From assembly GCA_964106645.2 (NCBI GenBank), contig OZ067042.1: DNA of 64,000 nucleotides. One strand, written 5' to 3'. Source of the stretch: Podarcis pityusensis. Lineage: Eukaryota. Shown piece by piece: positions 32,250-58,911 of this stretch. Under the pieces are notes generated by a model. The model was not told the DNA's origin. It searched no databases and saw nothing but the letters and a program-made list of their open reading frames with translations. Both the position numbers and the translations under genes were made by a program. Position 1 is the first letter of the stretch. The number at the start of each line of letters is the position of its first letter.

Positions 32250-32543
32250 ATAGTGCAAGTTCATGTTCCGATGGGGCTAGCATCTGGAGCCAACTGACGA
32301 TTCCCAGATAAGATCCTCCCCCTATTGTGTGGGCACGGTAGTCCCTCCCCCTACCTGGCCTGATCACCGTGGCAATGCCCCCCCAGGAGGGATTGGGCAA
32401 CTGGCTGAGGTAGGCAGAGACCTCCAGGTATCCCAACTGGGGAAGGCAAAGCCAAGCCTATGCTAATGGTGCCGCATAGGGTCCAGGGGGCTGCGTGTGA
32501 CCACGCAAAGGGTGCCCCCCATTTAATGTGGGGAGCAGTCATT
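32250..32543 (-). mobile_element. GC-rich interspersed repeat fragment, inverted relative to 35742-36032
   Basis: 32429-32543 is the reverse complement of 35742-35856 with few mismatches. Left boundary approximate. Confidence 0.65.
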
Positions 32544-34398: not shown

Positions 34399-34426
34399 AT
34401 GGATGCTCCACGAACGATGTGCATAG
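34399..34426 (+). CDS. PLEKHS1: PLEKHS1 first coding exon (exon 34381-34426)
   Basis: MDAPRTMCI(G): 28 coding nt; TAG acceptor at 34378-34380; GTATGA donor; phase 1 matches the next exon. Confidence 0.7.
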
Positions 34427-35410
34427 GTATGAGATGGAGTCTCATGAGTTTATCCAGACAGCAGGCCATACCCGTTTCCCTGGCAATTTTCATGTTTTTC
34501 TCAACATGCACTGTTTCTTTTTTTAATGGATACAATCAGTATGTGACTCCAACCAAAATTAGCATACAATTTTATGGCCCTGCCATGTATTGTATGTCCC
34601 TGTTCCAAAACATGGCAGAGTTTGCATATTTGGGCAGGGATATTCAGGTCTTGAGCCACATTGGAACTGACACATTTGCACTTAAAGCCCTGCCCTCTGA
34701 TCCAAAGATATGGGATGGACTCCCTTCACTCAGTGTTGTAGAAAATGCATTCTGCACATGCATTGGATTGTTGCTGCATGAGTCCTAGGGATGAGGCTTG
34801 GCTGAGTTAGCCTAAGATCAAGATGCCCTGTTTCTGATTCACCATGATGCTCCACCGACAATATTTCATTTCTACTGGTGATATTTTTCAAGTACTTGAT
34901 TTGGGTTTTCCAGCAGCAGCATCCATACAGACTGTCCTGCTCCCCTACATAGTTTTAACCATTTTATCTTGGATTGTGCCTGCCGGTCCAGTAGTAGATG
35001 TGCTATGAGTTGTAGGAACAAAGGGACGACCTCCCCTTTAAACATTCAGCGTATATTCAGATAGTTCTTCCAGTCTATATTCTGATTTCAACCAAATTTC
35101 TGAATTGGATTTTTGCTCCAGCTGCTGGGAATTGTTAAATTGCCGTACACTGCCTTGATATTTTATGTGAGTGGGAGAAACATAAGCACTTCAATAAATA
35201 AATCAAACTGGACCAATCATGGTAGGACTGGTCAAAAACAATTTCATATTTTACTTCAGACACAAATATCATTGTTTTGGTCATTTTGAATTGGATTTCT
35301 CTCCCTCCTTGACTATGGGTCTGTGGCTAAGGGATACAGAAATCCACTCTTCAGGGTTCTTTTCCTATGGAGGTAACATGGAATGTTTCTTACTGTTATC
35401 TCTTTATCAG

Positions 35411-35487
35411 GAAATTGTAGTTATGGAGATGTCTACAAGCATGGTTTCTTCATCAAATCCCCACCTCCTCATCTTTTCTCCAATCAG
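35411..35487 (+). CDS. PLEKHS1: PLEKHS1 exon, PH domain start
   Basis: GNCSYGDVYKHGFFIKSPPPHLFSNQ (Gab/PLEKHS1-type PH motif KSPP). Confidence 0.9.
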
Positions 35488-35611
35488 GTACTGTTGACAT
35501 AATAGCCATGGTGCTGCTGCTATAATAATGATGAGCAAATAGCAATAATAATTGTACTCATAATGTGTTACTGTATTTCTCATTCCTTGTCTTTTACCTT
35601 TCTTCCAACAG

Positions 35612-35718
35612 AACTCCTGGAAAAGGAGACACTTTATCCTTTGCAAGTCTGGCAAGAACGATTATGTCCTGAGGTATCTTAAAGGTGCCCAGTTAAAGGG
35701 TTACATTGAAATCAATGA
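35612..35718 (+). CDS. PLEKHS1: PLEKHS1 exon, PH domain
   Basis: NSWKRRHFILCKSGKNDYVLRYLKGAQLKGYIEIN; AG/GTAAGT. Confidence 0.92.
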
Positions 35719-35741
35719 GTAAGTATCTAGCCATGTCTCAG

Positions 35742-36032
35742 AATGACCGCTCCCCACATTAAATGGGGGGCGCCCTTTGCGTTGTCACGCGCAGCCCCCT
35801 GGACCCTATGCGGCACCATTAGCACAGGCTTGGCTTTGCCTTCCCCAGGTGGGATATCTAGATCCCTGGCAGGGGACTGGGAGGGATAAATGCCCAGTGA
35901 CTGAGCCAAGGTCTACCCACAATTGAAACATAATACAGTTGTGGCCAATTTTAATCCCATAGCACGTTGTCTTGAGTCGTTATTCCACACAGGGGCCGCC
36001 CAGAGTTTGGGGGACTCCGCCTGTCCATGCAA
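35742..36032 (+). mobile_element. LTR-like (possibly DIRS/Ngaro) terminal-repeat fragment
   Basis: Shares AATA(C/A)AGTTGTGGCCAA and a GGGGAC...GCAA end with the 51824-52610 element; its 5' part matches 32429-32543. Confidence 0.5.
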
Positions 36033-37059
36033 AGCTTCTTTTAACACTCCCTGACTGCCTGAATTGCTGCTTGCTGGCCCCCTCAAAAAAAGTTCTTCTC
36101 CAAGTTCTTCCCAAATGCATGGTGGAGCACCATATGAAATTGAACCACCTCACAGGTTAAAAGCACTGCGAGGCAGTGAGCAAGACTTGCCCCCTCGTCA
36201 GCCATGTATTCAGCTCTGAAAAGGGTCCCACACACTTCCTGATGTATGCATGCAGAGGCCTCCATGCTAGGGGGAATCCTGATCAGAACTACTTTTTGCA
36301 CAAAGAAGCTCTGATGGTATGCATATAGGGACCCTGCAGCTGGGGTGGGGTGGAGTGCCTGGGGGGTGCATTGGTAGGAGAGTGGCTAATCCATGTGGCC
36401 CTGCAACCCCTTCACAGTAATGCGCTTTTAATGTGTGAGAACCCGTGCAGCTGTTTAGGGTTCTATGAGTTCTAAAATGGAACCTCAGCCAGTCATCTCT
36501 CCAGATGCTCTGAGGTAATTCTAATCTGCTTTATTGTTTTAAGTTTTGTGTGTTTTTAAAGCGTGGTTGTGGTTTCTTCCTTGCTTTTCCTTGTTTTATC
36601 TTTTGTAAACCGCTTTGAGGTTTGTTTGTTTTTTTTAATTGAAACAAAAACTATTACATTTTCAAAATTAACAAAGAAAGAATAAAAAGAATAATTTGAT
36701 CTTCAACGACATATTCTAGGATAAAAATAGGTGTTACAAAATACACGGTAAAAGTATTTAAACATCTAAGATAAACAGAACAACATTGAAAAAGAAAAGG
36801 AAAAGAAAAAAACCAAAGCAAAACAACAAAAACTAGAAAAAAAACTTTTCTTAAACAAACATTTTTTAGGAAGTTCAAACCAATACTTAAATATTCTGTG
36901 CGCAAAGTCCTTCATACCGGTTTGAGTCCCTTATAATTTTGTTGACTTGTGCCTATCTCTTCGCAGTTTCAACTCAACTATTACAGTTAAATAATCTGTG
37001 CTTTGCTGTTTATCTAAAATTCTTTTCCTTTTCTGTGTAATTAATCAAAACAGGTTCAT

Positions 37060-37290
37060 TCCTGCTTTGAGGTTTTTGACAATTCAGCGTTATATAAATT
37101 TTGAGGAACAAACGAATGAATGAATGAATAATCTGGCTGCCGCATTTTGGACAAATTGAAGTTTCTAAGGTGTCTTCAAAGACAGCCCCATATAAAGTAC
37201 ATTGCAATAATCCAGTCTGGCAGTTACCAGAGCATGGAGTACAGTGGCCAAGTCTTCTCTGTCCAAAAGGGGCCATTGCTGGAGACAGGA
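37060..37290 (-). mobile_element. Degraded L2-like LINE fragment
   Basis: ACATTGCAATAATCCAGTCTGGCAGTTACCAGAGCATGG is the antisense of the L2 'HALVTSRLDYCN' region. Related relics at about 12610-12800, 49920-50070 and 57960-58450. Confidence 0.55.
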
Positions 37291-38052
37291 TTAATATGGT
37301 TTTAAATATATGTATCATTATATCACATTTGTCTACCCATTTAAAACCTCATGTGATTCTGTTTTATATAACTAGTTAAAATAACCAAGCTTTGTGAGTG
37401 TGCTATATCGGAAAAGGAATGTACTAGAATGCATTAGGCTGCCATGTGGCGTAATTTAAACAAGGTGGAATATATAGTTCTCTCCCTCCTCATTTAATCC
37501 CCACAACAACCCTGTGAGGTAGGTTGAGCTGAGAGATAGTGACTGGCCCAAGATCACCCAGTGAGTTTCATGGCTGAGCAGGTGTTTGAACCCTGGTCTC
37601 TCAGCTCCTAGTCCAACACTCCAACCACTATACCACATTATATTACACATTACATGCTTTTTATGACATGCACAAGATGGCAGTTTATTTCATCTATTAT
37701 AACTTACATGATTGTAAAAACCTGTATTGAAAGGATCTCAAGAATCAACCACGGTTCATAATGGTGCTACAATATATAGACATATTTAAGTTGAGTTATG
37801 TTTCATGTCTCTGAGGTTTTTTGTATCTATGGATTGGGGTAAGAATTTGGGACAGACAAGTTCTAATTTTGCACTTGCTTTTCCCATTCTGGATTATGTA
37901 AGACCAAAACACTTGTTTAGAAATGACATGCAGTAAAAACAGTCTCATCACGCGCAAGAACATATTTTACAATGCTAGATCATTGCCTATGACATCTTTT
38001 AACATGATGAGCCACACAGACTGTGTACATCTTTCATATATTTACCTAACAG

Positions 38053-38187
38053 GACTTCAGAAATAGAGATTGGCATAGGTGACCCTGAGAAAATGACGGT
38101 TGTGAAGAAGATGTTTAAATGCAAGCCTGCAGAAGTGATGACCATCAGAACAGAAAATAGGGTTTTCTATCTTATTGGATCAGACAG
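38053..38187 (+). CDS. PLEKHS1: PLEKHS1 exon, PH domain
   Basis: TSEIEIGIGDPEKMTVVKKMFKCKPAEVMTIRTENRVFYLIGSD; 135 nt. Confidence 0.93.
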
Positions 38188-40466
38188 GTATGTTCACCAT
38201 TCTTTACAGATATGTATGTATAGCTTTCATACCTGCTAGTATGAAGGCAATGAATTAAAAAAATTTAAAATACCGGTACAGGATCCTCAAATTGGTCAGA
38301 GCACATCCTCAAAGAAATTATCACACAAGCCATCATATATATTACACAAAAAAGGATTCCCCTTACAACGTTTACAAAGCTCGTGAAATACATTTGAACA
38401 GCAAGATGAGTGGAGGTGAAGGAAATTTAAGGAGCCACCATAGCTTAATAAATCAAGAATGGTTTCCCTACTGTGATTCCTTTCTTGCCCAGTTAAGCCA
38501 CTTATTATAGTGTGTTTCCCTTCTGAAAAACCCTTGCTTTAGAGGCTGTTCCGGAAGTAGAAGAAGAGCTGTGCTACAAGGTAAATTATGAGGGAATCTT
38601 TATTTGAGAAGAATCAGCCACAGAATAATCTCTTTTGGCATTACACATGCGGCAGGGATTTTCCCAGAGTCAGCATACCTAGAACTTATGAGAGAAATCA
38701 GTGCTGCTTGGAAAGAGATAATGCAAATCCTGTTAGGTACCTTTTTACCTTATACTCTCCTCCCCTTATTCTGCATATTCAATACCCAGCAGAGACTTTG
38801 GCACTGAAACAAAACCAGTCTGACCTCAAAGAAAACAAATACCCTTTGTTTGTTTTCGGTAACTTAGAATGGAGTGCCAGTTTCCTTAAAGGCTACTTTG
38901 AAAGATTCTAACCACTCCTGCAAGGCAGTGGGTACAGAATTTTCCTCAGGGTTTACTCCTGAAGGCCTTCCCACGAATGAGTTTAGCTGCAAGGCAGCAG
39001 AGGTTTAGGATCAGAGTTTTCCTTCTCCTAGATGGGCTACCTTCCCAGGTTGATGAGCCCCATCTTCCTCTCATTTCCCTCTATAGCCTACAGCCACACA
39101 TTAACAGCAACTAATGGAAAAGGTGGTGGTTGATAGAAACATTGTTTTTTATATAGATATCACAGTCACCATCAGACAGGGGAATCTCATCCTCACAATA
39201 AAGGTGGGGCAGAACCTGTGGGGTCCCCAGTGGGTGTATTGAAATGCCACCCTGCAAGAGACTGGTCTGGCTATCTCTGCACTTGCCTTCCAGCATGCCT
39301 TCTATATGAGCTTGGAACCCAAGTCAACAACATCATCCTGACAGTGTAGGAAGCTGCAGCCTTAGTGTGAAATGCCAAGGTTGCTAAGCAAACCATAATT
39401 GTCTTGGTTAGAAGATCTAATCCTTTTCAATGTGTGCAGTCACCCTGCTCCCATTCACATAGTATGCTCAGGCCAATGCATGGATATGCCTTTATGTCTG
39501 GGTTAAAACACTGATTAAAATGCTTTTGTTCAGCTAAAAGGATGCCCAAATAAAGCAGATAATGGATTTTTTTTTACTGTTCTTTATCAAAGTAGTGCAT
39601 CTAAAAGCTGCAGATGTACATTACATGCAGGTCCCACTATCTAAACAGAATGCATTTGCAGGAATTTGTTTCATAAGCATAACAAGTTGACCATTTCCAA
39701 TGATCTCTTTGGGGAAATGTGTTCCTGACCACAGAATATGACAAAATGTCAAAAATACCTGGGAAAGCCCTCTGAAACCTTGCAAAGGCAAATAAGGAAA
39801 GAAAAAATTGCTCTTATTTGTCTGATCTCTCCCCCTTCCTCCTCACTTCCTCCCACCATGGTTTCTGGTGAAACGGCTGCCGTGGACCAGCAAAACACAA
39901 AAAGTAAGGCTTCTTTAAGGCTGCTTATTTGTTTTCAGTGCTACACTCAGGTCCAGCTCTATGGATCTGTGGTGTGTATAATTTGCACACTAATTCCTCA
40001 TTTTTGGATAAGTGATTTTTTTTTTATAACAAGTGTTTGGAATAGCGGGACCTGTGTATATTTAAAATAAACTAGGGTTTTGCTTCAGTGCTATTGCTTT
40101 GACTCCTAAATTTATGCAGATTTGATAAATTAATTTACTTAGTTTGCAGTCCTAACCATGCCTAATCAGAAGTATGTCCCATTTGGGTGGCTATAGAGAA
40201 TGAGAGTTGAGATTCTTTTAAGATTTGAAATCTTCTACAGCCATGGAATAAAGGCATCCCTGGTTATATGGTGAAGGATTACCGGTGAGAATCTTGAAAT
40301 AATGGGTGATTAACTTTGGCCTTCCATATCTTGCCAAACCACAAGCCCCACCACTTCTGACTATTGGCCAACTGCTGGAGTCCAAGAATGCTTTAGATGT
40401 TTTCTGGATATACCCAGGGTAGTATTCAACTCTGAGTAAAACTTACTTGAATATCACTCAGCAATA

Positions 40467-40708
40467 CAGTGGTACCTCGGGTTACATACGCTTCAGGTTA
40501 CAGACGCTTCAGGTTACAGACTCCGCTAACCCAGAAACAGTGCTTCAGGTTAAGAACTTTGCTTTAGGATGAGAACAGAAATCGTGCTCTAGTGGCGCGG
40601 CGACAGCAGGAGGCCCCATTAGCTAAAGTGGTGCTTCAGGTTAAGAAGAGTTTCAGGTTAAGAACGGACCTCCGGAGCGAATTAAGTACTTAACCCGAGG
40701 TACCACTG
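40467..40708 (+). mobile_element. Tc1/mariner (Tigger-like) MITE
   Basis: TA-CAGTGGTACCTCGGGTTA ... TAACCCGAGGTACCACTG-TA; internal repeats of CTTCAGGTTA. Confidence 0.9.
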
Positions 40709-41233
40709 TATTGCTCATGCCAGGGATTATGGAACCTTAAGCCCAAGGCTCAAATATGGCCCTTGAGGCCTCCAAATCTTTCTCCCAGAAGTCTCCCCAA
40801 GCCATGCTCCTTCACTAGCCCTGCTTCATACCTTCCTCATCCTAGTTTTTCCTGTCCTTGAACTGTCTTGCCTGCCTGGCTGAAGGGATGTAGAGCGTAG
40901 GGTGTAAAGACCTCTGACTTTTGCATAGGTGGGATGTAGCCTACCTGACAAAGTTAAAAGTCTGATTTGTTGCCACTTTTGACTCTGGTCACAACCATCA
41001 CAGGCCTGTGACTCCCATCCTTGATGTTTTCCCATGAGGCAATGCAGCCCTTGGGCTGAAAAAGTTTCTCTGCCCCTTGGCATATAGGGAGGAGGCCCTT
41101 GAGCACCTTGAAGATGCTGCTCAAGGATTTGGTTCTTCTTAAAAGTAAAAAAAAAAAATTCAGAGGAATACAATCTCATTCCTAATATTTTGTTTCTTTA
41201 TCTGTCTCCTTAAAATGTAATTTCACTCTCTAG

Positions 41234-41288
41234 CAAGGACGTTGAGGACTGGGCCACCTTTCTGTTTTCAACCAGCAGAGAAACAAAG
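41234..41288 (+). CDS. PLEKHS1: PLEKHS1 exon, PH C-terminal helix
   Basis: KDVEDWATFLFSTSRETK with the conserved PH Trp; TAG/GTCAGT. Confidence 0.85.
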
Positions 41289-41917
41289 GTCAGTGGTTGC
41301 AATGCTGTTTTAATTATCGAACATCAGCCATTGACATTTTTTTAAAAATAAAAATAATAACAAATGTCTTCATCATTTGTTCTACTAGTGCTCGGTTTTC
41401 CTTTCTAAACTGTAACTTACAACTGGAGTCTGTCAGTTTCAGTTCTCTCAAGTTTCTAATTTTTCCAGTCTTAAATTCAGTTCTCCATGTTTTGTAGCAA
41501 TTGACACATTTTTAAAAATCCTCATGGAAATTTACCAGCATTTTAGTGTAAATTTCTCCCAATAAGCACATTTTATATGCACTTTTGAGAAATGTACACA
41601 TTTGCATTTTTTCAACCAATTTCCCCTAATACAATGCATATTCATTTGTTATTTTCACCAATCTATTCATTTTTTCTTGCATGCTTTCCTCTAGTATATG
41701 CATTTTTGTAAGCCTTGTTTGGTTGGAGAGCTAAATAGCAATATTCATGTAAATGTCAATTTCAAAAAATAGGTAAGCTTTGGTTTCATAATGTTTTGTG
41801 AAGTGTGGAATTTGATTGACTCAGCTTCAGACAAGATCTGAATTGAATTTCTCCCCCATCCCTACTTACAAACTAAGGGAAGTTTTAGGAATGAATTTGT
41901 ATCTTATCTCTAAACAG

Positions 41918-41974
41918 GGAGCAGGAGAGAGCTACAGATACAGTTACTGTGATACCAAGGAAAGACAGCATAAT
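41918..41974 (+). CDS. PLEKHS1: PLEKHS1 candidate 57-nt exon
   Basis: GAGESYRYSYCDTKERQHN; CAG/GTAGGT; phase 0/0; no homology recognised. Confidence 0.5.
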
Positions 41975-42991
41975 GTAGGTGCTTGCTATCTAGGCTGCAT
42001 TCTTGTGCTATTGGAGTGCATTGCAGTGCCATTTAAATTAATTTATCTATTAAAAATGTAAATTAAGCACCATTCTTCTCCACATATATTAACTTTATTT
42101 TTCAACTACATATATTCTGTGAACAAAAGTGTTTTGTTAGGCTTTTATGAATCTCCTGGAAATGAATAACTAGGTAATTATAAAATGAGACAGATTACAT
42201 AAAACAGGTCATTAGATGATCCTTTGCTAGGCCACTTTTTGGTGTTAGTTGGTTAATTGTCATCTTACACTGAAGTAGCATTGGAATGGGGATGATGGGA
42301 GTTGTTGTCTGGCAACATCTGGAAAACCACAGGTACCTCACTCCCAGATCTATCAGAACTCAGTTTACACAGATCCAAATTTTTCACTAGCAAAGGCTTG
42401 ATTAATAGATGCTGTTTGGATCTACAGGCTAAATTCCAGGACAAAACCTCAGTCGCCATTTTTTCAAACAGTTCCTGTAGAGTTATTATCAATTGCCCTC
42501 CTAAACAGCAGCCAAAATTCCTGGAGATAACAAAAGACTCTCTCCCCCCCCCCTCCCTCTGTGTCTGCCAGTGTTCTGGAACTGAACTTGCTGCATTCGG
42601 GAACAAACTAGACTTTTCATAGCATGCAGCTTCAGAGGCAATTTTTCAGGCATGGGGACAAGCGCTTATTGGGAAGCAGGTGCATACAGAGATGGAAGGC
42701 TTATCACTAGCTTAGATAGCTCAGTTGGTTAGAGTGTGGTGCTGATAACGCCAAGGTTGCAGGTTTGATCCCTGTATGGGACAGCTGCATATTCCTGCAT
42801 TGCAGTCTAACTCTGCAGTTCTATTCTTCACTACCTCAGCTTCAGCTAGGAGCCTTGAGGGGGAGAAGTTTCCATAGGTTGTGGGGTGATCTTTATTCAC
42901 ATCGTGGTGGGCATGGAAGAGATAAACTTTTATATTATTACAAAGGTTTTAACTATGTGAAATTACTCTGTTGCTTCATTTCTTGACCCAG

Positions 42992-43093
42992 AAACCAGAA
43001 ATGAGAAGTCGGTCAAAATCTTCACCAGCTTGTCTTGATGAAGTAGCTGCTGACATCATCAAGAAGGAACCGTGTCCTGACAATGAATATGAG
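42992..43093 (+). CDS. PLEKHS1: PLEKHS1 linker exon
   Basis: KPEMRSRSKSSPACLDEVAADIIKKEPCPDNEYE; phase 0/0. Confidence 0.7.
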
Positions 43094-43425
43094 GTGGTTG
43101 TTATATACTGTTTTTTTCATTTTAAGGGTGCTTCCAGGCTGTCAGTATTTCATGGGAAGGATTTCAAGGCATACCAGAAAACTTAGGTTTGCGCAATTAA
43201 AGTGCTCTGTTCCCCGGTGCCACAAATCCATCTTAAAAAAGAAACAGTTTTTTTGGCACTAATTGGAAAATGCATTGAAAATTGAGGGATGAATGAATGG
43301 GAATGCATGTAAACACCATTCAAATAAGTCACGATGAATCCAGGATAGGTACTCATTGTCATATAACTTCCCCACAAACAAATCAGAATAAATGCACAAT
43401 AAAGACTAGATATAGCCTAATTCCA

Positions 43426-43787
43426 GGGACGCGGGTGGCGCTGTGGGTAAAACCTCAGCGCCTAGGACTTGCCGATCGCATGGTCGGCGGTTCGAATCCC
43501 CGCGGCGGGGTGAGCTCCCGTCATTCGGTCCCAGCTCCTGCCCACCTAGCAGTTCGAAAGCACCCCTAAGTACAAGTAGATAAATAGGTACCGCTTTATA
43601 GCGGGAAGGTAAACGGCGTTTCCGTGTGCTGTGCTGGTGCATGCTCGCCAGAGCAGCTTCGTCACGCTGGCCACGTGACCCGGAAGTGTCTCCGGACAGC
43701 GCTGGCCCCCGGCCTCTTAAGCGAGATGGGCGCGCAACCCCAGAGTCGGTCACGACTGGCCCGTACGGGCAGGGGTACCTTTACCTT
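43426..43787 (+). mobile_element. Sauria SINE, full length, young
   Basis: GGGACGCGGGTGGCGCTG start and ACCTTT tail; TSD TATAGCCTAAT (43411-43421 and 43788-43798). Confidence 0.93.
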
Positions 43788-44064
43788 TATAGCCTAATCA
43801 TTGGGTAAGCTTTGTGAAAGAAAATCAGGATGAATGTGCAATAAATAAACTTGTCTGGGCGAGTGCTAAAAATAAAATAAAAATATTATTCCTTTTCTTT
43901 TCCACACCCATAACAATTTTAAAGTAGAACTACAACTCAAGTACCTGATTTTGCTTAAATGTGTTCTATCAGCAGAAAGAACAGGGCTAATTTCTAGTTT
44001 TAATGAATCACCCTGAAATAAAACTATGCTTTCTTTTATTCTGTTTTGATTTGTTGCGCTGCAG

Positions 44065-44169
44065 GATATAGGAACATCCATCTCCAAGAAGAGGCCCTAT
44101 TCAGAGCCTATTACTCAAGAATCCTCCCAAGAAGCCCCTGTTTATGAGTCACTGACAGTACTGCAACTA
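44065..44169 (+). CDS. PLEKHS1: PLEKHS1 linker exon (105 nt)
   Basis: DIGTSISKKRPYSEPITQESSQEAPVYESLTVLQL; CAG/GTGAGT; phase 0/0. Confidence 0.72.
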
Positions 44170-44320
44170 GTGAGTGTTGAAAGTGGGACTGGAAGAACTG
44201 TATGGATAATTTGAAGCAGCTACTGCATCACTTCCATGCATCGTGTAGTGGAGAAAGTTGCATGAGGCATTGCTCAGTTATTTTAAAAAATAAAATAAAA
44301 TAAGGGTTTGCAAGTGATTA

Positions 44321-44685
44321 AAGGTAAAGGTAAAGGTACCCCTGACCGTTATGTCCAGTCGCGGACGACTCTGGGGTTGCGCGCTCATCTCGCTCCATAG
44401 GCCAAGGGAGCTGGTGTTTGTCCGCAGACAGCTTCCAGGTCATGTGGCCAGCATGACTAAGCCTCTTCTGGTGAACCAGAGCAGCACACGGAAACACTGT
44501 TTACTTTCCCGCCGGAGCGGTACCTATTTATCTACTTGCACTTTGATGTGCTTTTGAACTGCTAGGTGGGCAGGAGCAGAGACCGAGCAATGGGAGCTCA
44601 TCCCGTCGTGGGGATTCGAACCGCCGACCTTCCGATCGGCAAGCCCTAGGCTCTGTAGTTTAGACCACAGCGCCACCCGCGTCCC
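44321..44685 (-). mobile_element. Sauria SINE, full length
   Basis: (AAAGGT)n at the left end and GCGTCCC at the right; TSD TGC(A/T)AGTGATTA. Confidence 0.92.
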
Positions 44686-45277
44686 TGCTAGTGATTATTT
44701 GCTACTTTTTATTTCTTCATTTTCTGATCCTTCCTTTTCACACCCACTTGCCTCTCCTTATCCCTGGCTTCCACACAGTCGCCCATAATGCTTCCATTGC
44801 AGAAACGTGCTTAGAAACTTATATCCATGGGCACGATAATATGATTATAATTACCTATAATTATTATATTTATTTATAGCCCGTGTTTTTCCCAGACCAG
44901 GACTCAAGGTGGCTTGCACAAATTGAAAAAAACAGAGATAAAATACAGAAAGCCAAAAACATATAAAATATAATAATTTAAAAGTAATTAAATTATAATA
45001 GAATTGAAACAATTTAGAAACAAATCTGTCATAGGTCAGCGGGTTTGAGTACATTCATACCAGCTGTTCTCCATGTTGTTATGGCACATCTCAACCTGAT
45101 TACATTCCTCATAAGTGTTTCACTTCTGATTTTCTTGTGGGGCAGCAGGTCTTCCTCATTGCTGGTTTCATTTGCCAAAAAAGAGCAAGTGTTTGCATAT
45201 TATCCATTTTGACCTTTCTCAGAGCATGATGAGCAAAGAATAATGACACTGTAAATATGTCTGTACTTTTGTTTCAG

Positions 45278-45361
45278 CGACACCTGACAAATCATCAAGA
45301 GTCAGAGGAAAAATCCGAAATGGAGGACTACTATGCTTGTCCAACAAATATTCTAGCTACG
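45278..45361 (+). CDS. PLEKHS1: PLEKHS1 exon
   Basis: RHLTNHQESEEKSEMEDYYACPTNILAT, similar to the mammalian EENHYLTPRSVL region. Confidence 0.8.
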
Positions 45362-46166
45362 GTAACGTATATATCATTATTTGCTCTGTTCTAAATAATG
45401 AAGTAATGCTTATATCTCTTTTTAATGTGCAGAATCCTTTATCTTGTGTGCAGATTTGTTCCATGCCAGTTTAGTCTCGTAGCACTGTATAAAGCTTGCG
45501 TCATACTGAGTCAGAACATTAGTCCACAGAGCCCAGTATTATAAATTCTGACTAACAGCAACTTCCAAGGGTCTTATTCAGAGGTCTTTCCCAGCCCTTG
45601 CATCTGAAACAATTTGTTACTAGAGCTGGATATTAATTATCATTATCATTATATGATGATGATGTATACCCCCGTCCATCTGTCTAGGTTTCCTGGTTTA
45701 CAGGAATTTACATTTCAAGGTGTTTGAACTAGAAGACCCTTAGGTCCCTGCCAACTCCAGAATTCTGTGATTCTACACCTGGGAACTTTGGTATGCAAAA
45801 TGTGCTTTACAGCAGTGGCTCTCACCTGTGGTAGAGATTTACCCAAAGCTTCCAGCTGTTTCATGACTGTTTAGGGTCTTCTGCCTCTAAATCAACCCTC
45901 TTCCCCCTCTAAGATTTGCAGTTGTTCCAGTACTCAGAATTTCTTCAGAAATTAAACGATTGTAGTTTGCTGAAACCAAGTCTTTCATGAAGCAGTAAGA
46001 GTTATCTTATTTTGCTTTAGTGGCATATCAGTTTTATCCAGACAGACTAGACCATATGTATTAGTGGGTTCAATAACAGTACTGAGAGCACCGCTTTTAA
46101 CAAAGTTGAGTTTTTATTTCCTTTGGATACGTTAATATACTTTGCATATGCTTTTTACTTTCATAG

Positions 46167-46267
46167 CTGAATGATATGCAGGATAAATTCAGCACCACAG
46201 AAGAGACTACTAACCCAGATAAGGAAAAGGTTGGTGAACCTGAAGAATACATGCCCATGGGATGCAT
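46167..46267 (+). CDS. PLEKHS1: PLEKHS1 exon with YxxM motif
   Basis: LNDMQDKFSTTEETTNPDKEKVGEPEEYMPMGC; TAG/GTGAGT; phase 0/2. Confidence 0.85.
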
Positions 46268-48350
46268 GTGAGTATTCAAGCATGGTGCATTTTGCTCCTA
46301 AATTTATCTGAAGCAATAGTTCGTGGATTTCTTTTGCAAAGCTTTTGCTAGATCAGGATTCCAAATCCCATCAACTCCAGCCAGCATGGCCATTGGTCTG
46401 GAGTGATTGGAGTTGTAGTGCAGAAACACATGGAGGGGAACAGGTTCCCCATCTCTGTGCTAGACCATCATTGCTTCATCTTTACTGCACCTGGGGGAGA
46501 ACATTTTAGTCTACTGTGGCACTCTGTTTCTTTCTCACAACAAAGTGATGTCTACCTTTAGGTGTTAAATTAACATAGCCAGAAAGATAGTATTATTACC
46601 AGTAACTGCTGGTGCAAATTGATCACTCTTGTAATCTTGAATAGATTCCTTCCTTCCTTCCTCTCCTCAGAAGGAGCTGATCCTGTAGAAGCTACTTTGT
46701 CTTAACCAGTCTGTGCCAATTTCCAAGCCCATCAGCCCTGGCAAGGCAGTAATGTACATGCCAACAGCAATCACATAATTCCCCCTGAATCAGCTTTTGG
46801 CATGTTACTGTAGCTGCTCAAAGATGGCCAGGACTTCTGGTGCCTCGAAGCCCTGGAAAAGGCCATAGTACAGAAGCTGGATAAACACAAAATATATTAA
46901 AATCCTCCAAGACATTGGCTGGGTACACTCACGGCTCATTGCCAGTAAGTAAACCACCACACAGATATTTTTTTTTAGTTGAACCAGTAGCCTGAATTCA
47001 TTGTATGGATTCTGTTGCCATTCAAATTCAGCGAGGATTCAAATAATTGTTAAGGTTTTGCTCCAGGTGTTATTTTTGTGGGGAGGTAACACTATAGTCT
47101 AGCTTTCAGTTTCATGTTTGGTTTAGCACCCGAACTGCTAGACAGTCATTGTACCATTTTTCATGGATCATTCCTAGGATCCTCTAAGAAACCCAACTCA
47201 TGTAGACTCAAAAGCATGCTATAGAGCTGTTTTAAAGTCCATTTCAGTGATTTGGGGTTGTCGTGGCAAGTACTGTCCTGGCTGAAGGCTGTGGACTAGT
47301 GTAACCTGAGTCCGCTTGTTCCATCTAGATTAGAAACCCTCAAACAATAACTATGTCCCAGAAATTGGAACAAGCTGGACGTTCCTATGGATTGTAAGCC
47401 TTTTCTGGGCAGTGGCTGAGGTCAGATTTCCCTTCCTCACAAGCAAGTCAGACTCTCAGGAACTCCGTGCAGACTGCATACCATCACTATGCTGGTGGGG
47501 TAGTACTGGGTTCATGCCTGCTGGCTCTGTCCTGATCTCCACACCTTGGTAGCATCACATGCACAGTGCCTGCACTTGTAAAAGCTGTTACTCCCCATGT
47601 CCAATCTTTACCGTGTTGTTTTTTTTTTTGCAAAATACAGGTCTCATGACAAAGGTCTGTTTCAATCATTGGGACTTCAATGGGGCTGAATAGAGTGGCA
47701 GAGAAACATCCAAAGCTCTCCCACTTGTGCTAGCCATGAAAGAGAGGTGGCTGTGAAACTGCAGTTTTTCCCTGCACCGGCTTCAGGATGGTGCAGCAGA
47801 GAGGCCTAAATCAAGTCCAGCATCAGTAGCTGGAGTGGCTTAGGATCCAGCAGATACTTGGTGGACCCTTCTCCACACCATCCTTGTCACCCCCACACAC
47901 CAAAACTCTCAGTTTGGGGGCTTTCCATTAGCTAAAACTGGCAGAGATACCTCCAACCGTAGGTCTGTTCATCCAGTTATAGCGGGGACCTCTGTGGTGG
48001 TGGAGGTCCCCTGTTGGCAGATTGCAGTGGAGCCAGGACACCATCACCACATCCTAACCCCCTCTAGAATGGCAGGTTAGGGTTTCTCTGCCCATCTGGA
48101 TCAAACCCAAAGACTGGGCATGTACAATTTGCATGTGTGTTGATTTTCTGCACAAAAACTGGCCAAAGTTTGGGGGTCTGTCAGGGCTGATCTGGCACTA
48201 CAATTGTGCTTCACTTCCCACTACCCCTCCGTTCATACACTGATTGTGCAGCTTCAGTCTGCTGCCCAGGCTAAAGTTTTTTTTTAAAAAAAAAAATTAT
48301 AGACATGGTTGATGCATTTCCTTTTAAAAGTAATATAATTTACTCATTAG

Positions 48351-48551
48351 AGTTTCAGGGGTAGCGGAGGTAAAAATTGAACCTACAAACAATGAATCGA
48401 CGACCCTTCCTGAAGGCCAGGAAGATAGCACGAATCTGCAGGTGATAGAGGACAAGCCTTTGAAACCAACACCACTACCAAGGACCTGGAAACCAGAAAA
48501 AACACCGAAGCTATCAGTTCTGTCTGTGGTTCAGTTGTCCATTATTCTCAG
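48351..48551 (+). CDS. PLEKHS1: PLEKHS1 exon
   Basis: ...TLPEGQED...KPTPLPRT...LSVLSVVQLSIIL, matching the conserved LTVVQLSIL motif. Confidence 0.85.
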
Positions 48552-49250
48552 GTGTGGATTCTCTCAGTGTTTCCTGTGGATAGTGATGGCTGGATACATG
48601 TGCATAATTTACATTTTCAATATATTAGTAATTATGTCTGTATTTCTCACAAACTCCCTGAGAGCAAAAGAAAATGCATTTCTATTTCAATGGGTTTTCC
48701 ATTGTCCTGATTTCCAAGTGATACAATCAGTCCAATAGTCAATGTCAATGCTTTGAAGTTAGTTCTTTGCTCCATTATGTGAACCAGAAAAGAATACTTA
48801 ACCTTTATCTCCCCACCATGTGAGCCTTTTGAATTCATTCAAGTGTACATTGGACTTTGTTCCATTGTTCCACGTAGTTTGCAAAGGTGCAGGGGAAATG
48901 AATGACTATGATTCTTGCTTCGACAATAATTTGATTCTGTTAAGAAATGAGCCCTTTCTTACACACTGCTTTACAGCTGTATTCTAACGCACACTTACAT
49001 CACCTTGAGTTTTGAAAGGGCAGAATATAAGTGTTTTGAAAAGCTCCCTATTTTATATAAGAAGATAAAGAAGTCAGATATAGAATGTTGTAAGACTGGT
49101 TGTGTGGGTTATCATGGAACATATTTAGACTGTTTCTAGCTCAGTACTGTCTGGCAGTGGCTCTCATTAATAGCAACAACTTGCAGTGGTACCTTTCTGG
49201 TTTATTAGCCACACATTTTGGGTTTCACAACACGCCTTTCCTCTTTTCAG

Positions 49251-49352
49251 TAAAGTCAGAGATGACTGCAAATTGGAAGAGGTGGATATTCTCCTTCCCC
49301 GGAGTGATTTCACCAACTGCCTGACACTTGTCAAAGCCGCTGGGCGTATATG
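49251..49352 (+). CDS. PLEKHS1: PLEKHS1 exon
   Basis: KVRDDCKLEEVDILLPRSDFTNCLTLVKAAGRI(C); CAG/GTAAGG. Confidence 0.9.
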
Positions 49353-50022
49353 GTAAGGCCTCTTATTTTCATGCTGGTTTGTACATTCAGCTCTTAAAAA
49401 GCAATCAGTTTTTTTGGTTAGTTCCAGCAATGTCACCGCATCATTACTGATCAATTTCATAAGAGACAGCTCAAGTTAATATTAATAAATTAACCCAAAT
49501 TAAGGCTCACCCACACATGCTCCAGGCTTTCTAGGCACTGGGCTGAGCTTTCCCCTGTCCCAGGGCTTTCCCTGGGAAAGCCCATGTTTTACTGCTGAAT
49601 CGGAGCAAACAGCAATCTGGAAAGCCCTATTGCTGTTTACTCCCACTCGGCGGTAAAATGCAGGTTTTCCCCAGGGAGAGCATTGGGAACAAAAAACCCA
49701 ACAACACCTGAACCTGTGCCTAGACACCTGGAGCAAAGGTAAGTGTGGATGAGGCCTAAGAAGAGCCCTGCTGGATCAGGCATAAGACCCATTGAGTAGT
49801 CCATCATCCTATTCTTACAGCTGTGAAACAGATGCCTGTGGGAAGCCTGCGGGCAGGACCTGAGAACAGCAGCACTGCTGCTATTGATCCCCCACAACTT
49901 GTATCCATATGCCTGTTTAGGGAAGTTTTTAATATTTAATGCTGTATTTTTTTAACACTTGATTGGGAGCCGCCCAGAGTGGCTGGGGAAACTCAGCCAG
50001 AAGGGTGGGGTATAAATAATAA

Positions 50023-50069
<47 letters not shown>
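50023..50069. repeat. (TAT)n tract, tail of an L2-like element
   Basis: Seen directly; follows GGGAGCCGCCCAGAG...GGGGTATAAATAATAAA. Confidence 0.85.
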
Positions 50070-50072
<3 letters not shown>

Positions 50073-51823
50073 GATGCACACATGCACTCATTCACACTTC
50101 TTTATTCTTGTTAGCCTGTTCTGTGTGAAATCTGCTGTAGCTCTTGCTGTTGTAGCTCATGCTAGTCTTTCTCAATACAAGTCATATAAGTGTGAAATGA
50201 TTGTCCCAAAGAAGATTGCCAGAGCCCTGCCTTGTAATCAATCTAAAATCTATCTTTATATTTAACCTTTTGAGTTGACCTTTTGATCAGTCTATTTTTG
50301 GGTGTGAACTTTATTTTGCATTTTTAAATAAGTTATTTAACATCTAGCTGTTATTGTTCTTGATTGTTACCCTCTTCAGGTTTGCCAAGAAATAAAAGTG
50401 GGATATATTTTTTTCAAAAGCAACATCTGTTCACTGGCAGGTGAACAACATACTTAAATTAACTTGTTTTTATACATACTTCATATGGTGACCTGTCATT
50501 TTGCAGTGTTCAGGAGAGCTGGCTATGTAAGTCGTTTAGGGAGTGCTAGTTTTGCATTCCTGCCAGAGACCAGAAATGAATTTGTTAAAACACTGAAAAC
50601 TGCTGCTTGGCAGTTTAGGTTTTAATTTGCAAATCACCAACTTAGTTTTTATGTAACACAAAACAGAAGTTTTAATCCCCACATTTCTTAGTATATTCTT
50701 CAGTTGGGCATTCCCATACTAATGAGTTGGTGAGGGAGTTGAAATAAAAATAAATTTACAAGCACATAAAACTGTTCCACAGTCTTTGTGGACCACAAGA
50801 TGTCACACTTTCTCTACCACAGTTTATTCCATATGACAAACAGTCCGGTGGCATTATGCTTTTGCATCCATATATTTCAGTGCAAAGAAAACACAATGCA
50901 AATGTGGTGGGGGGTAGGGAGGGGAGAAAAGTCATCAGTTACATACTGTTTGCAGACTATAAGGTACAACAGCAGTGAACACTGATCATATTCACCAGAT
51001 AAGACTTCTGTTCTGTACATGGGACAAATAAGTGAACATTGGCAATTTCCACTCCTATTTTCATAGATATCCTACAACATTCCCAAGAGAAGGTTAAGAA
51101 AGTAGAGAATTTCCATTATCTCACATATTTTGCAGAGGCAGTAGGGAAGTTAGTGTGCTTCCTAGAAAATCAGTATCAGTGACTGAGGAAAGGAAGGGAG
51201 GGTGAAATGGACATAGATTAGAGGTGCCTAGAGCTCATCTCCTGCTGTGCCTTCCCTTGTGTACTCTCTAGTGCTCAGTTGCAAGTCTGACTCTCTCTGC
51301 TCTCCTTTGATGTACTTCACATGCCTGCTGCACACTGCGCACAAGAAAGTCACTTTCTCAGGCCTTGTCAGTGATGGGAGGAAATTCTTCCCAACAAGTT
51401 TCAGAGAGGAAGTCCCCCTGTCACAGAAAGCTGATGGGCATATTCAGATTAGTAGAAAGAAGGCTCCTATCAAAAAAAAATAAAAAAAAAATCCAATGTT
51501 TAAAAAGTGCTGGAAAGAAGGTGGAGAACAATTGCTGACTACATTTAACAAGGATAAAGCAAAGAGTAATGGAATGAAGTGACAGAAAAGGAAATCTACC
51601 TTAAAATGGCCTATCAGACCAATTCAGCAATGCAGTAAACTACTTACAGAGATGGTAGAATCTCCTACTTAGTGCATATAATGCATGTGTGTGTGAACGT
51701 GTGTGTGTTTAAATAGATAGTGTGTTTTGGCATGTGACTAGATAATCTAGGTAGTTTAAACTTCCAGGGCTAGGGCTGTGTACTGGAATGCCGTAAAGCA
51801 TGTTCTCCTTCACAGAGAGCACG

Positions 51824-52610
51824 TGTTGCGGTGGGGGCCGCCAGGACACTCCAAAGTTGGGGGCGGGCTAATTGATTGTTGGCCACTGATGCGATTGGGG
51901 CTTCCCTTGTTGTTGGGAGGAAGTTAATGTTGCCATTTGTTGATTGACAGCCAGAAATGCTAAAACTTCTTGCACGAGGCTAGGGCTTCCTCTTTTCGCC
52001 CGTGCATCGGATTGCCCGTCCCTCCCTCCCTAGAAGAGGGTTGTTCACTTTGACCTTGCTATGCCTGTCATGGGGTCGTCTGCTTTGGGGCAGGGGCCTG
52101 GTAGGAATTTTGTCCATCTGGCTGATTGGTTGGGGCCATTTGGTTTTTGCCTACTGCGTAGCAAATCATCACAACTTGTAAGGTTCGCGGTTAGGCATTA
52201 GTTTATGGTTTGGTTAGTTGAGGGGCATGGATTGGCTGTGCCTGCCCCTCTAATGCTGCTGCTGCAAGGGATTCCGTTAAAGGAATTGGGGGCTAACTAT
52301 TGCTTGTCCACTCTGACAAGGGGGCTCGGGCCATAGCAATGAGCTCCTGGTTGCATTTGGGAAGGGCTGAGGGCAGGTTCCCTGCGCCGACGCTACCCCC
52401 AAGTGTATTCCCCTTTTCTGACTTTCGCATCGTGCGGAATGTCAGTCTGTCCCCCATGGTGGGGGCAGATCGTCGCAACCAATGCCTAAGCAGCCACTCA
52501 CAAATTTGTATTTTAATAAAGTTGTGGCCAAAATTATGCCAAAAATCTTAAACAAAAATTCTGTGTGATGTGTGAGTTATTGGGGTGGCCCTGGGGACCT
52601 CAACACGCAA
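51824..52610 (+). mobile_element. Solo LTR-like element (possibly DIRS/Ngaro terminal repeat)
   Basis: GC-rich block of about 790 bp. Short inverted termini (TGTTG/CAACA or TTGCG/CGCAA), several GATTG(G) boxes, and AATAAAGTTGTGGCC at 52515. No TSD visible. Confidence 0.5.
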
Positions 52611-53098
52611 TAAAATTGCTCAACCAGCCTAATGGGCCAATTATGTTAGGTCTCTGGGCTGAGATAAACAGAATACCCCCAGATTGTCTACTGGAATTTC
52701 TGCTGGACTTTATATGTGTACAAAGCCGGAGGCTTGAATACTTGATATTATTCATTTTGATTTAAAGATGTATCTTCCAACTTTCAGCAGCCTTAACTGC
52801 CAAAGAGCAATTTAGAGAACTTTCTCCCAACTCAAAGAATGAATTCAAAAGTAGTATGGTCAGGGGTCCCTTTACCTTTTTAATGTAGAATAGAAATCAC
52901 AACCACAGGGTCAAAATCATTTAGTACCTTCATTCAATATAGATCATTGGTTACTGGTTCTAGTATCTTTAGGCTGACATACTACTTTTAATTTTGGTCA
53001 CCAAAAGCTTTTACCTTTCATGTTTATAATAGGATCAGAATTAAGAATTCTCTCTGGTTTCTAAGCTTCCTCTACAAGATTTGTGACCCCTAATAGCC

Positions 53099-53154
53099 AC
53101 AACCCCAGAGTCGTCCGCGACTGGACTTAACGGTCAGGGGTCCCTTTACCTTTA
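53099..53154 (+). mobile_element. Sauria SINE 3'-end stub (second stub at about 52858-52879)
   Basis: ACAACCCCAGAGTCGTCCGCGACTGGACTTAACGGTCAGGGGTCCCTTTACCTTT. Confidence 0.75.
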
Positions 53155-53306
53155 ATAGACTATAGACGAGTACCCCGAGATCACCCTAAACTCTGATAGC
53201 GTATTTCCATTTCACCTCCCTGCTTGGAAGCTTTAACGGATGTCTACTGCTTGATTGGATTAACCGCTTAGCTATTAATTTCATCCCAACTCTCCAGTAT
53301 TTTTGA

Positions 53307-53567
<261 letters not shown>

Positions 53568-53881
53568 TAGGACCACCAAGCAGTGAATTAGTTTGTGGCA
53601 ATTAGCTGTGGGGCTTATCCAAGCACATTTGTTCAGACAAAAGCATGGTTAACATTATGATTATGATTATTATTATTGCTGCTGCTGCCTCTGCTGCATA
53701 CAATCTCCCATGTGGCTACCCATATGTTGGTCTCTTGTGTGCAGCCAGTAGTTTCACACCAGGGTAAAAAATGGTAGTGGATTTCCTACCCTCAGCAACC
53801 CACTTTAATCTGAGCACGGACCTTATCCAAGGAATATGTTTCTAATGATTTTGCTCTGGAACATAATGGAAGACAGTGTAA

Positions 53882-54073
53882 CATAGGAGCCAACTCCTAG
53901 GGGCTGTGGGGGCTTCACTCCCCCCAGAAAATATTTGAGGGGGCCAAGGCCCCACCCCCAAGTTGATAGGCATTGCCATTCAAATGGTGTGCATGCACCG
54001 TGTCATGTGATCGATTATGTGGGGTGAGGCTTACCTGGGCCCGCCCAATATTTTATTCAAGTTGGCACCCCTG
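53882..54073. mobile_element. hAT-like MITE
   Basis: Termini CATAGGAGCCAACT / AGTTGGCACCCCTG; 8-bp flanks CAGTGTAA / AAGTGTAA. Confidence 0.7.
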
Positions 54074-54972
54074 AAGTGTAATAAAACTCAAGCATCTTAA
54101 TCACATCAAGTTTCATTAAAAGCCATTGATAAAAATAGGCGCACACCCCCACACACCCCCAACAATAATAGGTTTCATAGTAGAGTATTCATGAGCTGGG
54201 CTACCTGCTTAGAGGGACAGTCGGTTAAATGCAGTGCCAGCAAAAAATACAAGCTGTGTGGGAAGTTTAATTTGGACTAGAGCACGAGTCTTGCAGAGTG
54301 CCCAGGGACAGCATGGGCTGATCTGTTGTTGGGAAGAAAAATGTACACAATGAAGAAGGGCTGAGCAGACAAGCAAAATGAAATGTGAGCAACTGAACCA
54401 AGGGGCCAAGGTGGCAGAGAAGACAAAGGGGAAATTATCTAGTATGTGGAAAGCTGGAGAAAGCAATGGAAGAAGCAGAAGTGTAGTGGAGAACAGAAAG
54501 GTAAGTGGAAGTGATGGAAAACTGAAAACAGGGTCAGGGAATTTAGGGAAGGTGGGACTAATAAAAAAATAGCACTGGGTGAAAATTCTTCATACTGATC
54601 TTGGGGGAAAAGAAGACTGGTTATGTGTTGAAAAGGAAAATGGGGAAGCAATGGTATTGGTATTCATCTCCTGTTGAGACTCCTGTTGGTTTTAAGGCAA
54701 TTCCAGACCTCTCATTTATATTGTATGTATTAGGATTAAAGATACACTGCATCACTAGTAATCATTTAATGTGGTTCAGGTTAGGTGATCATAGGTGATC
54801 ATGGGTTAGTTGGCTATATTGGCTCAAAAACAATTGGTTTAACACTGTGAATTCATACTCTGGTAAATGTTAATCTGTAATCTCTCCCTGTTTGGCATAC
54901 ATTGCAATATTAGGAAGTAGCTAGATTGTGCAATTCTTAACCAATCACCTACTCCTAGATAACCATTTTGCC

Positions 54973-54977
<5 letters not shown>

Positions 54978-55007
<30 letters not shown>
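54978..55007. repeat. (CA)n microsatellite
   Basis: Seen directly. Confidence 0.95.
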
Positions 55008-55011
<4 letters not shown>

Positions 55012-55463
55012 TTTCTGTGTATTTGATATCCCAGGAATTAGTCCCACCTCCCTAGCCACTATACCACACTACCTCAAAGTTTATTTGCCACTGCCTTGAA
55101 ATCACTTTACCCAGAGATCTTCCATATTGTATTGGTGCTGGCAGTTGCAGGCTCTACACGCTTCTCTGTGTCTGGCTGTCAAAACCATTTGTGGAGAACC
55201 ACTCATTGTAAAACCTTGAATTTCTCATGGCCTGCATCAGGATTCTGTGGACACCCAACTTCACAAAGCTGTGCGGTACTGCAATTCACCACTAAGATTA
55301 AATAATTTTAAACCTGCAAAGGTATATGGGGAAAAGATAAGTTTATGAATTGTATATACAAAGTTGCTAATCACTATTCTATTAACACAATGGTGCAGGC
55401 TTGTAAACTATAAATAGTAACGTGGTAAGTGCTTTTCTCTCCATTTTTTTTTCTTTCCAAAAG

Positions 55464-55532
55464 GTGAAACTGACTGTATGTCGGCTTCCAGATTCAAAAA
55501 TTTTACATGCTCAAGGATGCAAATGTTCCTAA
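55464..55532 (+). CDS. PLEKHS1: PLEKHS1 last coding exon
   Basis: VKLTVCRLPDSKILHAQGCKCS*. The summed 14-exon model is 1359 nt and in frame. Confidence 0.88.
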   Translation: MKLTVCRLPDSKILHAQGCKCS

Positions 55533-57952: not shown

Positions 57953-58680
57953 CTTATATGGCTTAGGCCTGGGCTATTTAAAGAATGTATTATCCCATAC
58001 AAACCTGCCTGGGCTCAGAGATCTTTGGGGAAGACCCTTCTCTCCGTTCTGCCACCCTTGCAGGCACGTTGATGGAGATGTGAGAGAAGTCCATCCCAGT
58101 GGCTTCTCCCAGTCTTTGGAATTCCCTTCCTACAGAGGCTAGAATGCGTCCTTCCTTGCTTTTTCTTCCACCAGCAGGTGAAGACTGTTGATTTAGACTG
58201 TTGATTTAGACTGTTGAATAGACTTTCAGGAACTGACTGTTTTTAAGACAAGGGCTTTAAATAGTTCTGTGTTTTGCGGTTTTTACTATATGTATATTAA
58301 TATATATTTTTTATATTGTTTTCATTCTATTATAGTTCTTTTAAGTGATCACCTTTTGTATGTTTTTAGGTTTTTGTATTTTATCCATGTTATTTCAGTT
58401 TTTGTAAATAGCCTTGAGTCCCATTCTGGAGAAGAGGTGGGATATTGAGGATCAAAGAAGATTTGTGGAAATTAAGTACAGTTCTTCCATCCACTTGGCA
58501 GCATGAGAGGGGAGGGGCTTTGCTCAAGCTCATTATAGCTTGGGCATTATTTAGTGTTATGTGTGAACCAGCCCTTTGAGTAACCATTAAATCAAGGTTA
58601 ACCTATTTAAATAAGCATTCAGCTTTACATAGAAGCACAGGTTCTGTTCCCTTGGACAACCAGGATTTCTAAATATTATA

Positions 58681-58911
58681 CAGTGGTTCCTCGGGTTACA
58701 GACACTTCAGGTTACAGACGCTTCAGGTTACAGACTCCGCTAACCCAGAAATAGTACCTCGGGTTAAGAACTTTGCTTCAGGATGAGAACAGAAATTGTG
58801 TGGTGACAGCGGGAGGCCCCATTAGCTAAAGTGGTACCTCAGGTTAAGAACAGTTTCAGGTTAAGAACGGTCCTCCAGAACGAATTAAGTTCTTAACCTG
58901 AGGCACCACTG
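58681..58911 (+). mobile_element. Tigger-like MITE (same family as 40467)
   Basis: TA-CAGTGGTTCCTCGGGTTA...GAGGCACCACTG-TA. Confidence 0.9.

Follow-up and report, generated by a model that had tools for sequence, protein, structure and literature searches.

Inverted Sauria SINEs around exon 7 of PLEKHS1 in Podarcis: probably later bystanders of an old in-frame cassette

Exon 7 of PLEKHS1 in Podarcis pityusensis is enclosed by two SINEs in opposite orientation, and is probably an old in-frame cassette exon, with the SINE pair as later bystanders that do not govern the choice between inclusion and skipping. The exon has likely been skippable since at least the reptile-bird ancestor. The two elements, called SINE1 and SINE2 here, inserted separately, as they differ in age and each has its own target-site duplication; they likely came later than the skippable exon, and they likely pair with each other in the pre-mRNA.

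The window, i.e. the whole stretch of 64,000 nucleotides that was analysed, lies at G000:C5:49848001-49912000. Mapping of squamate proteins placed the coding span of PLEKHS1 at 34399..55532 (+), with 13 coding exons and an open frame of 433 amino acids. The gene was named by a query with its PH-domain exon, which matched squamate proteins annotated as PLEKHS1, from Zootoca and Podarcis among others. PH domain, linker, YxxM motif, and C-terminal domain are colinear with these named proteins, and the frame differs from P. muralis P0013 at 7 residues in 433 amino acids.

Exon 7 (44065..44169, +) has a length of 105 nt, is in phase 0/0 and bounded by AG and GT, and carries an RPxSxP motif (Ser181), Tyr180, and Tyr195. 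It is preceded by exon 6 (42992..43093, +; 102 nt, phase 0/0), which encodes an RSKSSP motif, and followed by exon 8 (45278..45361, +; 84 nt, phase 0/0). The YxxM motif (Tyr259), the PI3K p85 site, is encoded in exon 9 (46167..46267, +) and hence stays outside exon 7 and unaffected by skipping. The frame symmetry of exon 7 is unremarkable, because 7 of the 13 PLEKHS1 coding exons have lengths divisible by 3, among them both of its neighbours, which are themselves in phase 0/0. Its acceptor has 11 pyrimidines in 17 positions (10–15 in the other PLEKHS1 exons), and its donor reads CTA/GTGAGT. Elsewhere in the window, a possible caspase-7 exon was noted at 22078-22206 as a candidate from its translation; both the assignment of the product to caspase-7 and a CASP7-PLEKHS1 synteny are our assumption. 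A 200-nt run of N, an assembly gap, is located at 61462-61661.

SINE1 (43426..43787, +) is a full-length Sauria/Squam1-type element of the younger subfamily in PLEKHS1 intron 6, and its tail ends about 277 nt upstream of the exon-7 acceptor. SINE2 (44321..44685, -) is a full-length, older copy of the same type in intron 7, with a tail that begins 151 nt downstream of the exon-7 donor. The two are inverted, tail to tail, with a gap of 533 nt, and enclose this one exon, all of which agrees with the initial annotation. Target-site duplications were found for both, one of 11 nt at SINE1 (TATAGCCTAAT; 5' copy 43411..43421 (+), 3' copy 43788-43798) and one of 8 nt at SINE2 (AGTGATTA; 44313..44320 (+) and 44690-44697). 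Both elements have an A-box-like motif at +11 and a B box at +64, as in a tRNA-derived head, scored with what we take to be the Pol III A/B-box patterns, and both end in an (ACCTTT)n tail of at least two units. Read in SINE sense, both duplications begin with TA. The Tn-TA signature would add a T-run about 10 nt further upstream; it was looked for, and no TTT was seen in the 5' flank of SINE1 or SINE2. An Rfam search of the pair gave no matches. By their boxes, tails, duplications, and high copy number, the two elements are best assigned to the Sauria SINE family (Squam1). For Sauria SINE, an (ACCTTT)n tail has been described together with a Tn-TA insertion signature that is a tendency and not universal (PMC13295347).

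SINE1 and SINE2 are identical in 302 of 358 aligned columns (84%), with a longest perfect run of 23 nt, and in the MFE fold of 43400-44710 they form 318 base pairs with each other, which bears out the physical plausibility of a duplex. Within the PLEKHS1 coding span, SINE1 has no full-length inverted partner other than SINE2; the best inverted partner overall (96-97%) was located at 62489-62856, 18.7 kb downstream and past the PLEKHS1 stop codon.

Several other repeats were observed in the window. A tRNA-like element in PLEKHS1 intron 5 (42711-42805), of which a second copy exists at 133-186 (repeat family D11), gave an Rfam tRNA match at 42717-42775 (E 4.5e-6), many of the reads there deriving from other loci; it is likely another tRNA-derived SINE. 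The 3' flank of SINE1 (43800-43870) has 28 short matches elsewhere in G000, which suggests that the insertion hit an older low-copy repeat or a site next to one. A 121-nt inverted repeat with 93% complementarity (32423-32543 and 35742-35862) lies around PLEKHS1 coding exons 1-3, its downstream arm beginning 23 nt past the exon-3 donor. Downstream of PLEKHS1, a repeat family of about 240 nt forms another close inverted pair (58678-58916 and 59724-59963), 92-94% complementary and less than 1.1 kb apart, with a third copy at 40463-40713. MITE-like repeats at 4710-4908, 13165-13300, and 24425-24815 consist of near-perfect short hairpins, with arms of 80 nt at 99% and 58 nt at 91%, and a direct/inverted cluster.

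For the subfamily age, 55 SINE copies were aligned and the distance of each to the leave-one-out majority of its cluster was determined. This distance is 3.6% for SINE1, in a cluster of 12 copies (median 4.7%), and 8.5% for SINE2, in a cluster of 37 copies (median 7.0%); the larger cluster also holds copies at 2.8%. SINE1 is younger than SINE2, yet outside the youngest copies. Its placement in a young subfamily, as had been proposed, therefore stands in relation to SINE2 (3.6% versus 8.5%) but not in relation to the copies at 2.8%.

Full-length copies of this SINE number 60 in 1.063 Mb (about 56 per Mb), and published Squam1 counts range from 107,217 to 130,894 per Podarcis genome (PMC10670947 Table 1), with presence differing at tens of thousands of loci between Podarcis species (PMC10670947 Table 2). 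The focal pair is the sole full-length pair within 1 kb among these 60 copies. Under random placement, about 0.8 inverted pairs this close are expected per Mb (about 1,200 per genome), and 0 were observed in an unselected 1.0 Mb; a depletion of inverted pairs was not evident, with 19 direct versus 18 inverted pairs within 10 kb. A Poisson background gives 71-278 exons per genome flanked by inverted pairs within 0.5-1 kb, an estimate with an assumed 180,000 internal exons per genome underlying it. So close an inverted pair is locally uncommon, but many are expected per genome. The SINE1-SINE2 duplex is average in strength: 19 of 40 random copy pairs give a duplex as strong, and 58% of 1,485 copy pairs are as identical. 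Two more tail-to-tail inverted SINE pairs less than 1 kb apart, with one partial copy each, were seen at L018:6691-8119 and L079:8846-9724.

Sequencing runs of relatives were used to follow the insertions and the splicing. In total, 24 runs matched, none of them on record as RNA in the run search, and 8 were examined. For a congener (organism B), the DNA evidence comes from one run (X3) of 12, from a sample other than that of the RNA runs. Contigs of run X3 (42810-43448, 43776-44353, and 44661-45450) join unique sequence to both ends of both SINEs. Both SINE1 junctions are crossed by organism-B contigs 23 and 29, and the SINE2 junctions by X3 contigs 29 and 30, the head junction being reached in runs X1 and X2 too. 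Both SINEs are at the same sites in organism B, and SINE1 therefore predates the split from that congener, within which, going by this one run, it may still be polymorphic. An empty SINE site was not seen in the contigs of runs X1, X2, and X3.

In the RNA of organism B, one contig (X15 record 9) has exons 6, 7, and 8 back to back, which confirmed exon 7 as a spliced exon. RNA runs X16 and X18 of the same organism, from two other studies, contain exon 7 in spliced contigs that account for all exon-8 depth. Inclusion is the only form assembled in all three contig RNA runs (X15, X16, X18; three studies), a count that has to be read with the tendency of contigs to lose rare forms, and the same applies to the search for a skip contig in these three runs, in which none was seen. 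The SINEs are likely bystanders, because a relative with both of them includes exon 7 in its assembled transcripts. Two raw RNA runs, X23 and X21 (about 12% and 6% read), had zero depth on exons 6-8. Differences inside the SINEs in raw reads were mostly C>T and G>A; they were rejected as a sign of editing, since the reads derive from paralogous copies elsewhere. Lizard SINEs are edited in general, with 8,663 sites reported (PMC5625713), and therefore some editing of the SINE1-SINE2 stem would be unsurprising.

In organism A (runs X1 and X2 from two studies), positions 43967-44233 are uncovered, with no contig over exon 7 at 96% likeness, and contigs end at 43386, and among the contigs listed none runs across the SINE1 junction. 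A genomic deletion of exon 7 in this organism was considered and rejected, as no contig joins across the gap and the contig tool filters silently. By a rough estimate, absence would give a word share of at most 0.67 and 0.60 in X1 and X2, versus 0.76 and 0.69 found. Exon 7 is probably present in organism A, with the gap explained by filtering or divergence. Joints of the type 43788>44319 derive from other loci, because their sides measure about 20 nt and they occur in run X3 with an intact region as well.

Skipping was then compared across 141 aligned PLEKHS1 proteins of more than 200 aa, among them the 120 matches listed, of 212, from a wider search. Five short unrelated cluster members (<200 aa), including P0015 and P0137-P0139, stand outside this set, as do proteins from later crocodilian, platypus, amphibian, and mammal comparisons. 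YxxM was found in 141/141 proteins. The exon-7 block is missing in 10 of the 141; three of these are the Podarcis proteins, and the other seven belong to birds and a sea turtle. In pairwise comparison, each of these seven lacks one clean block of 32-37 aa with RPxSDP: Chelonia mydas isoform X2, Dromaius isoform X2, Pezoporus occidentalis isoform X3, Cyrtonyx isoform X3, Neopsephotus isoform X2, a Pterocles model, and P0083. Five of them are numbered RefSeq isoforms, one is the sole Pterocles model, and P0083 is the protein from a 1,550-nt assembled Logan contig, so that the turtle and bird skip isoforms are predicted models for the most part. To our knowledge, these SINE insertions are absent from birds and turtles. 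The presence of the skip form in a turtle and in birds suggests that exon-7 skipping is likely older than this squamate SINE pair.

Within Podarcis, the in-frame isoform that had been postulated is annotated exactly: a protein joining exon 6 to exon 8 exists in P. muralis (P0002, UniRef A0A670HU74) and in P. lilfordi (P0003/P0008). RefSeq gives P. muralis and P. raffonei a single isoform each, with exon 7 included, and in P. lilfordi both proteins found are skip forms, the inclusion form not being found among the matches listed. The P. lilfordi annotation drew on the P. muralis UniProt proteome in addition to RNA-seq and Iso-Seq (PMC10214862), and the Podarcis skip models are for this reason not independent. 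Among the matches listed, squamate skip models occur in 2 of 3 Podarcis species versus 0 of 28 other squamate species by hand count; a Fisher test with 2/3 versus 0/27 (later count 28) gave p=0.007, with species and pipelines that are not independent. The neighbouring blocks are missing at times as well, that of exon 6 in two turtle isoforms and that of exon 8 in one parrot isoform. None of the crocodilian, platypus, and amphibian isoform pairs compared skips exon 7. Anolis P0151 and the rodent proteins P0153/P0156, in which the motif is missing, were poor or uninterpretable models and were not counted as exon-7 skips.

Exon 7 does encode YSEP and YESL, as was noted initially, and the two tyrosines had been put forward as candidate SH2-docking sites. 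Only 3 of 45 squamate inclusion proteins have the YSEP tyrosine (Tyr180); Lacerta and Zootoca carry Ser at this position, and P. raffonei carries Cys. Of the 45 squamate proteins, 44 retain the second tyrosine (Tyr195), 35 of them with Pro at +3, and its counterpart is mostly missing in birds and turtles. The four named residues of RPxSxP are the same in 131/131 inclusion proteins, and a matching motif was found in crocodile, platypus, bilby, pocket mouse, caecilian, and newt. This conserved motif agrees with RxxSxP, the sequence consensus of 14-3-3 mode-I sites, and presumably is such a site. The only invariant content of exon 7 is this predicted 14-3-3 site, and with a functional YxxM outside the exon, the weight given to the two tyrosines was misplaced.

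Mouse PLEKHS1 pulls down 14-3-3, and S157, S256, and S180 are predicted sites with S157 on top; S157 is phosphorylated and predicted to bind 14-3-3, and the protein activates PI3K via Y258xxM (10.1101/2023.05.18.541123). In the pocket mouse, the serine of RPLSDP is at 155 from the aligned Met and YxxM is at 251. By these pocket-mouse positions, taken in place of the mouse sequence, the RPxSxP serine is likely the counterpart of mouse S157. Skipping of exon 7 would then delete the phospho-serine 14-3-3 site, in squamates also Tyr195, and would rewrite the junction YE/D to YE/R, whereas the PH domain would stay, as would the PI3K site YxxM. The skip models presumably reflect real transcripts, and the skip form is presumably a minor product, which might act as an adaptor less restrained by predicted 14-3-3 binding. 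It was also observed that Tyr-Glu-Asp-Ile spans the exon 6-7 junction (43085-43093 / 44065-44070) and turns into Tyr-Glu-Arg-His upon skipping; we take the former to resemble a Src-family SH2 ligand.

Other explanations have to be weighed against that of an old cassette with bystander SINEs. It had been proposed that SINE1 inserted recently, may be polymorphic, and gave rise to an in-frame isoform without two SH2 docking sites, as a lizard analogue of TBXT. In line with this, SINE1 is the younger copy, Squam1 loci vary between Podarcis species by the tens of thousands (PMC10670947 Table 2), and no organism-A contig listed crosses the SINE1 junction, but the skip form occurs outside squamates in seven turtle and bird proteins, a congener shares SINE1 and includes the exon, no empty site was seen, and the YSEP tyrosine is not conserved. 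Such a de novo creation has already been largely refuted by the non-squamate skip isoforms and is very improbable. Conversely, exon 7 might be constitutive in Podarcis, with the Podarcis skip models as annotation artefacts and a SINE pair without any splicing effect. This appears quite improbable, as the models join exon 6 to exon 8 exactly and the same skip is found in a turtle and in birds, P0083 from an assembled run included, and as the P. lilfordi annotation is backed by RNA-seq and Iso-Seq (PMC10214862); it would nevertheless fit the lack of skip contigs in X15, X16, and X18, the single inclusion isoforms given by RefSeq to two Podarcis species, and a possible spread of one UniProt model into the P. 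lilfordi annotation.

An unlikely explanation is that the SINE pair acts as a real tuner: by looping out a cassette that is weak to begin with, it would increase skipping in Podarcis, possibly up to dominance in P. lilfordi. The pair could act, since its 84% identity at a distance of 533 nt exceeds the 228/297 of the TBXT pair, and engineered inverted pairs drive skipping whatever the sequence (PMC10901737). The 318 inter-SINE base pairs in the MFE fold and the position of SINE2 as sole full-length inverted partner in the coding span speak for it as well, as do the confinement of squamate skip models to Podarcis among the matches listed (2/3 versus 0/27, p=0.007, non-independent) and the lack of exon 7 in the two proteins found for P. 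lilfordi. However, organism B carries both SINEs and yields only inclusion contigs in its three contig RNA runs, RefSeq keeps exon 7 in P. muralis and P. raffonei, and the P. lilfordi skip model may be inherited from the P. muralis UniProt proteome (PMC10214862). In addition, many constitutive exons in humans also lie between inverted Alu pairs, and the MFE differs little (d=-0.12; 10.1101/2025.03.07.642063). It is unlikely, too, that the inverted Sauria SINEs captured an ancient cassette and pushed it to species- or tissue-specific skipping, dominant in P. lilfordi, thereby stripping a tetrapod-invariant predicted 14-3-3 brake from a PI3K-activating adaptor and leaving YxxM in place. Taken together, the splicing choice is likely old, and the SINE pair is likely beside it by chance or at most tunes it.

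The conserved skippable exon suggests a splice switch between a restrained and an unrestrained form of a PI3K driver that is studied in prostate cancer. With the many species-variable Sauria SINEs in Podarcis, the loop-out model derived from Alu becomes testable outside primates, and the PLEKHS1 locus is a usable, not an outstanding, test case for it. If the SINE pair did capture exon 7, this would be a reptilian case of splicing control by a SINE pair, and a few hundred similar exons together with tens of thousands of species-variable insertions would then serve as natural experiments.

Compared with PLEKHS1 as described for the PI3K adaptor (10.1101/2023.05.18.541123), the squamate protein shares the PH domain, the YxxM, and, in all likelihood, the serine that ranks first among the predicted 14-3-3 sites, and it adds a conserved Tyr-Glu-Ser motif in the exon with RPxSxP. 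Skipping of this exon is not described in the accessible part of that report (10.1101/2023.05.18.541123), nor was it found by literature search. The two SINEs resemble the Bov-B-mobilised Sauria SINE/Squam1 (PMC13295347, PMC10670947) in their length of about 360 nt, A/B boxes, tail, TA duplications, and high copy number, and depart from the Sauria SINE signature in that the T-run is missing at both sites.

In humans, inverted Alu pairs are enriched around skippable exons, with a stability that differs little from that around constitutive exons and an effect that is modest and probabilistic (10.1101/2025.03.07.642063). PLEKHS1 exon 7 is similar to these exons in being short and skippable with an inverted pair within 1 kb, and differs from them in the SINE family and its density of about 56 full-length copies per Mb. 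A literature search found no lizard survey of inverted SINE pairs around skippable exons and nothing on Sauria SINE pairs and splicing. With a few hundred SINE-flanked exons expected per genome, the configuration at exon 7 of PLEKHS1 is an ordinary one.

The closest layout is that of TBXT, in which an inverted AluY-AluSx1 pair leads to skipping of exon 6 in hominoids (PMC10901737). In both genes, a younger and an older SINE in opposite orientation occupy the introns flanking one in-frame exon, with 84% identity at 533 nt for the PLEKHS1 pair versus 228/297 at 1,448 nt for that of TBXT (PMC10901737). The TBXT skip isoform is lineage-specific and lost on deletion of either Alu (PMC10901737), whereas the PLEKHS1 skip is annotated in lineages without these SINEs and carriers of the pair assemble the inclusion form. 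The proposed analogy to TBXT therefore holds for the layout and for repeats capable of pairing, but not for a skip form confined to the lineage that bears the pair.
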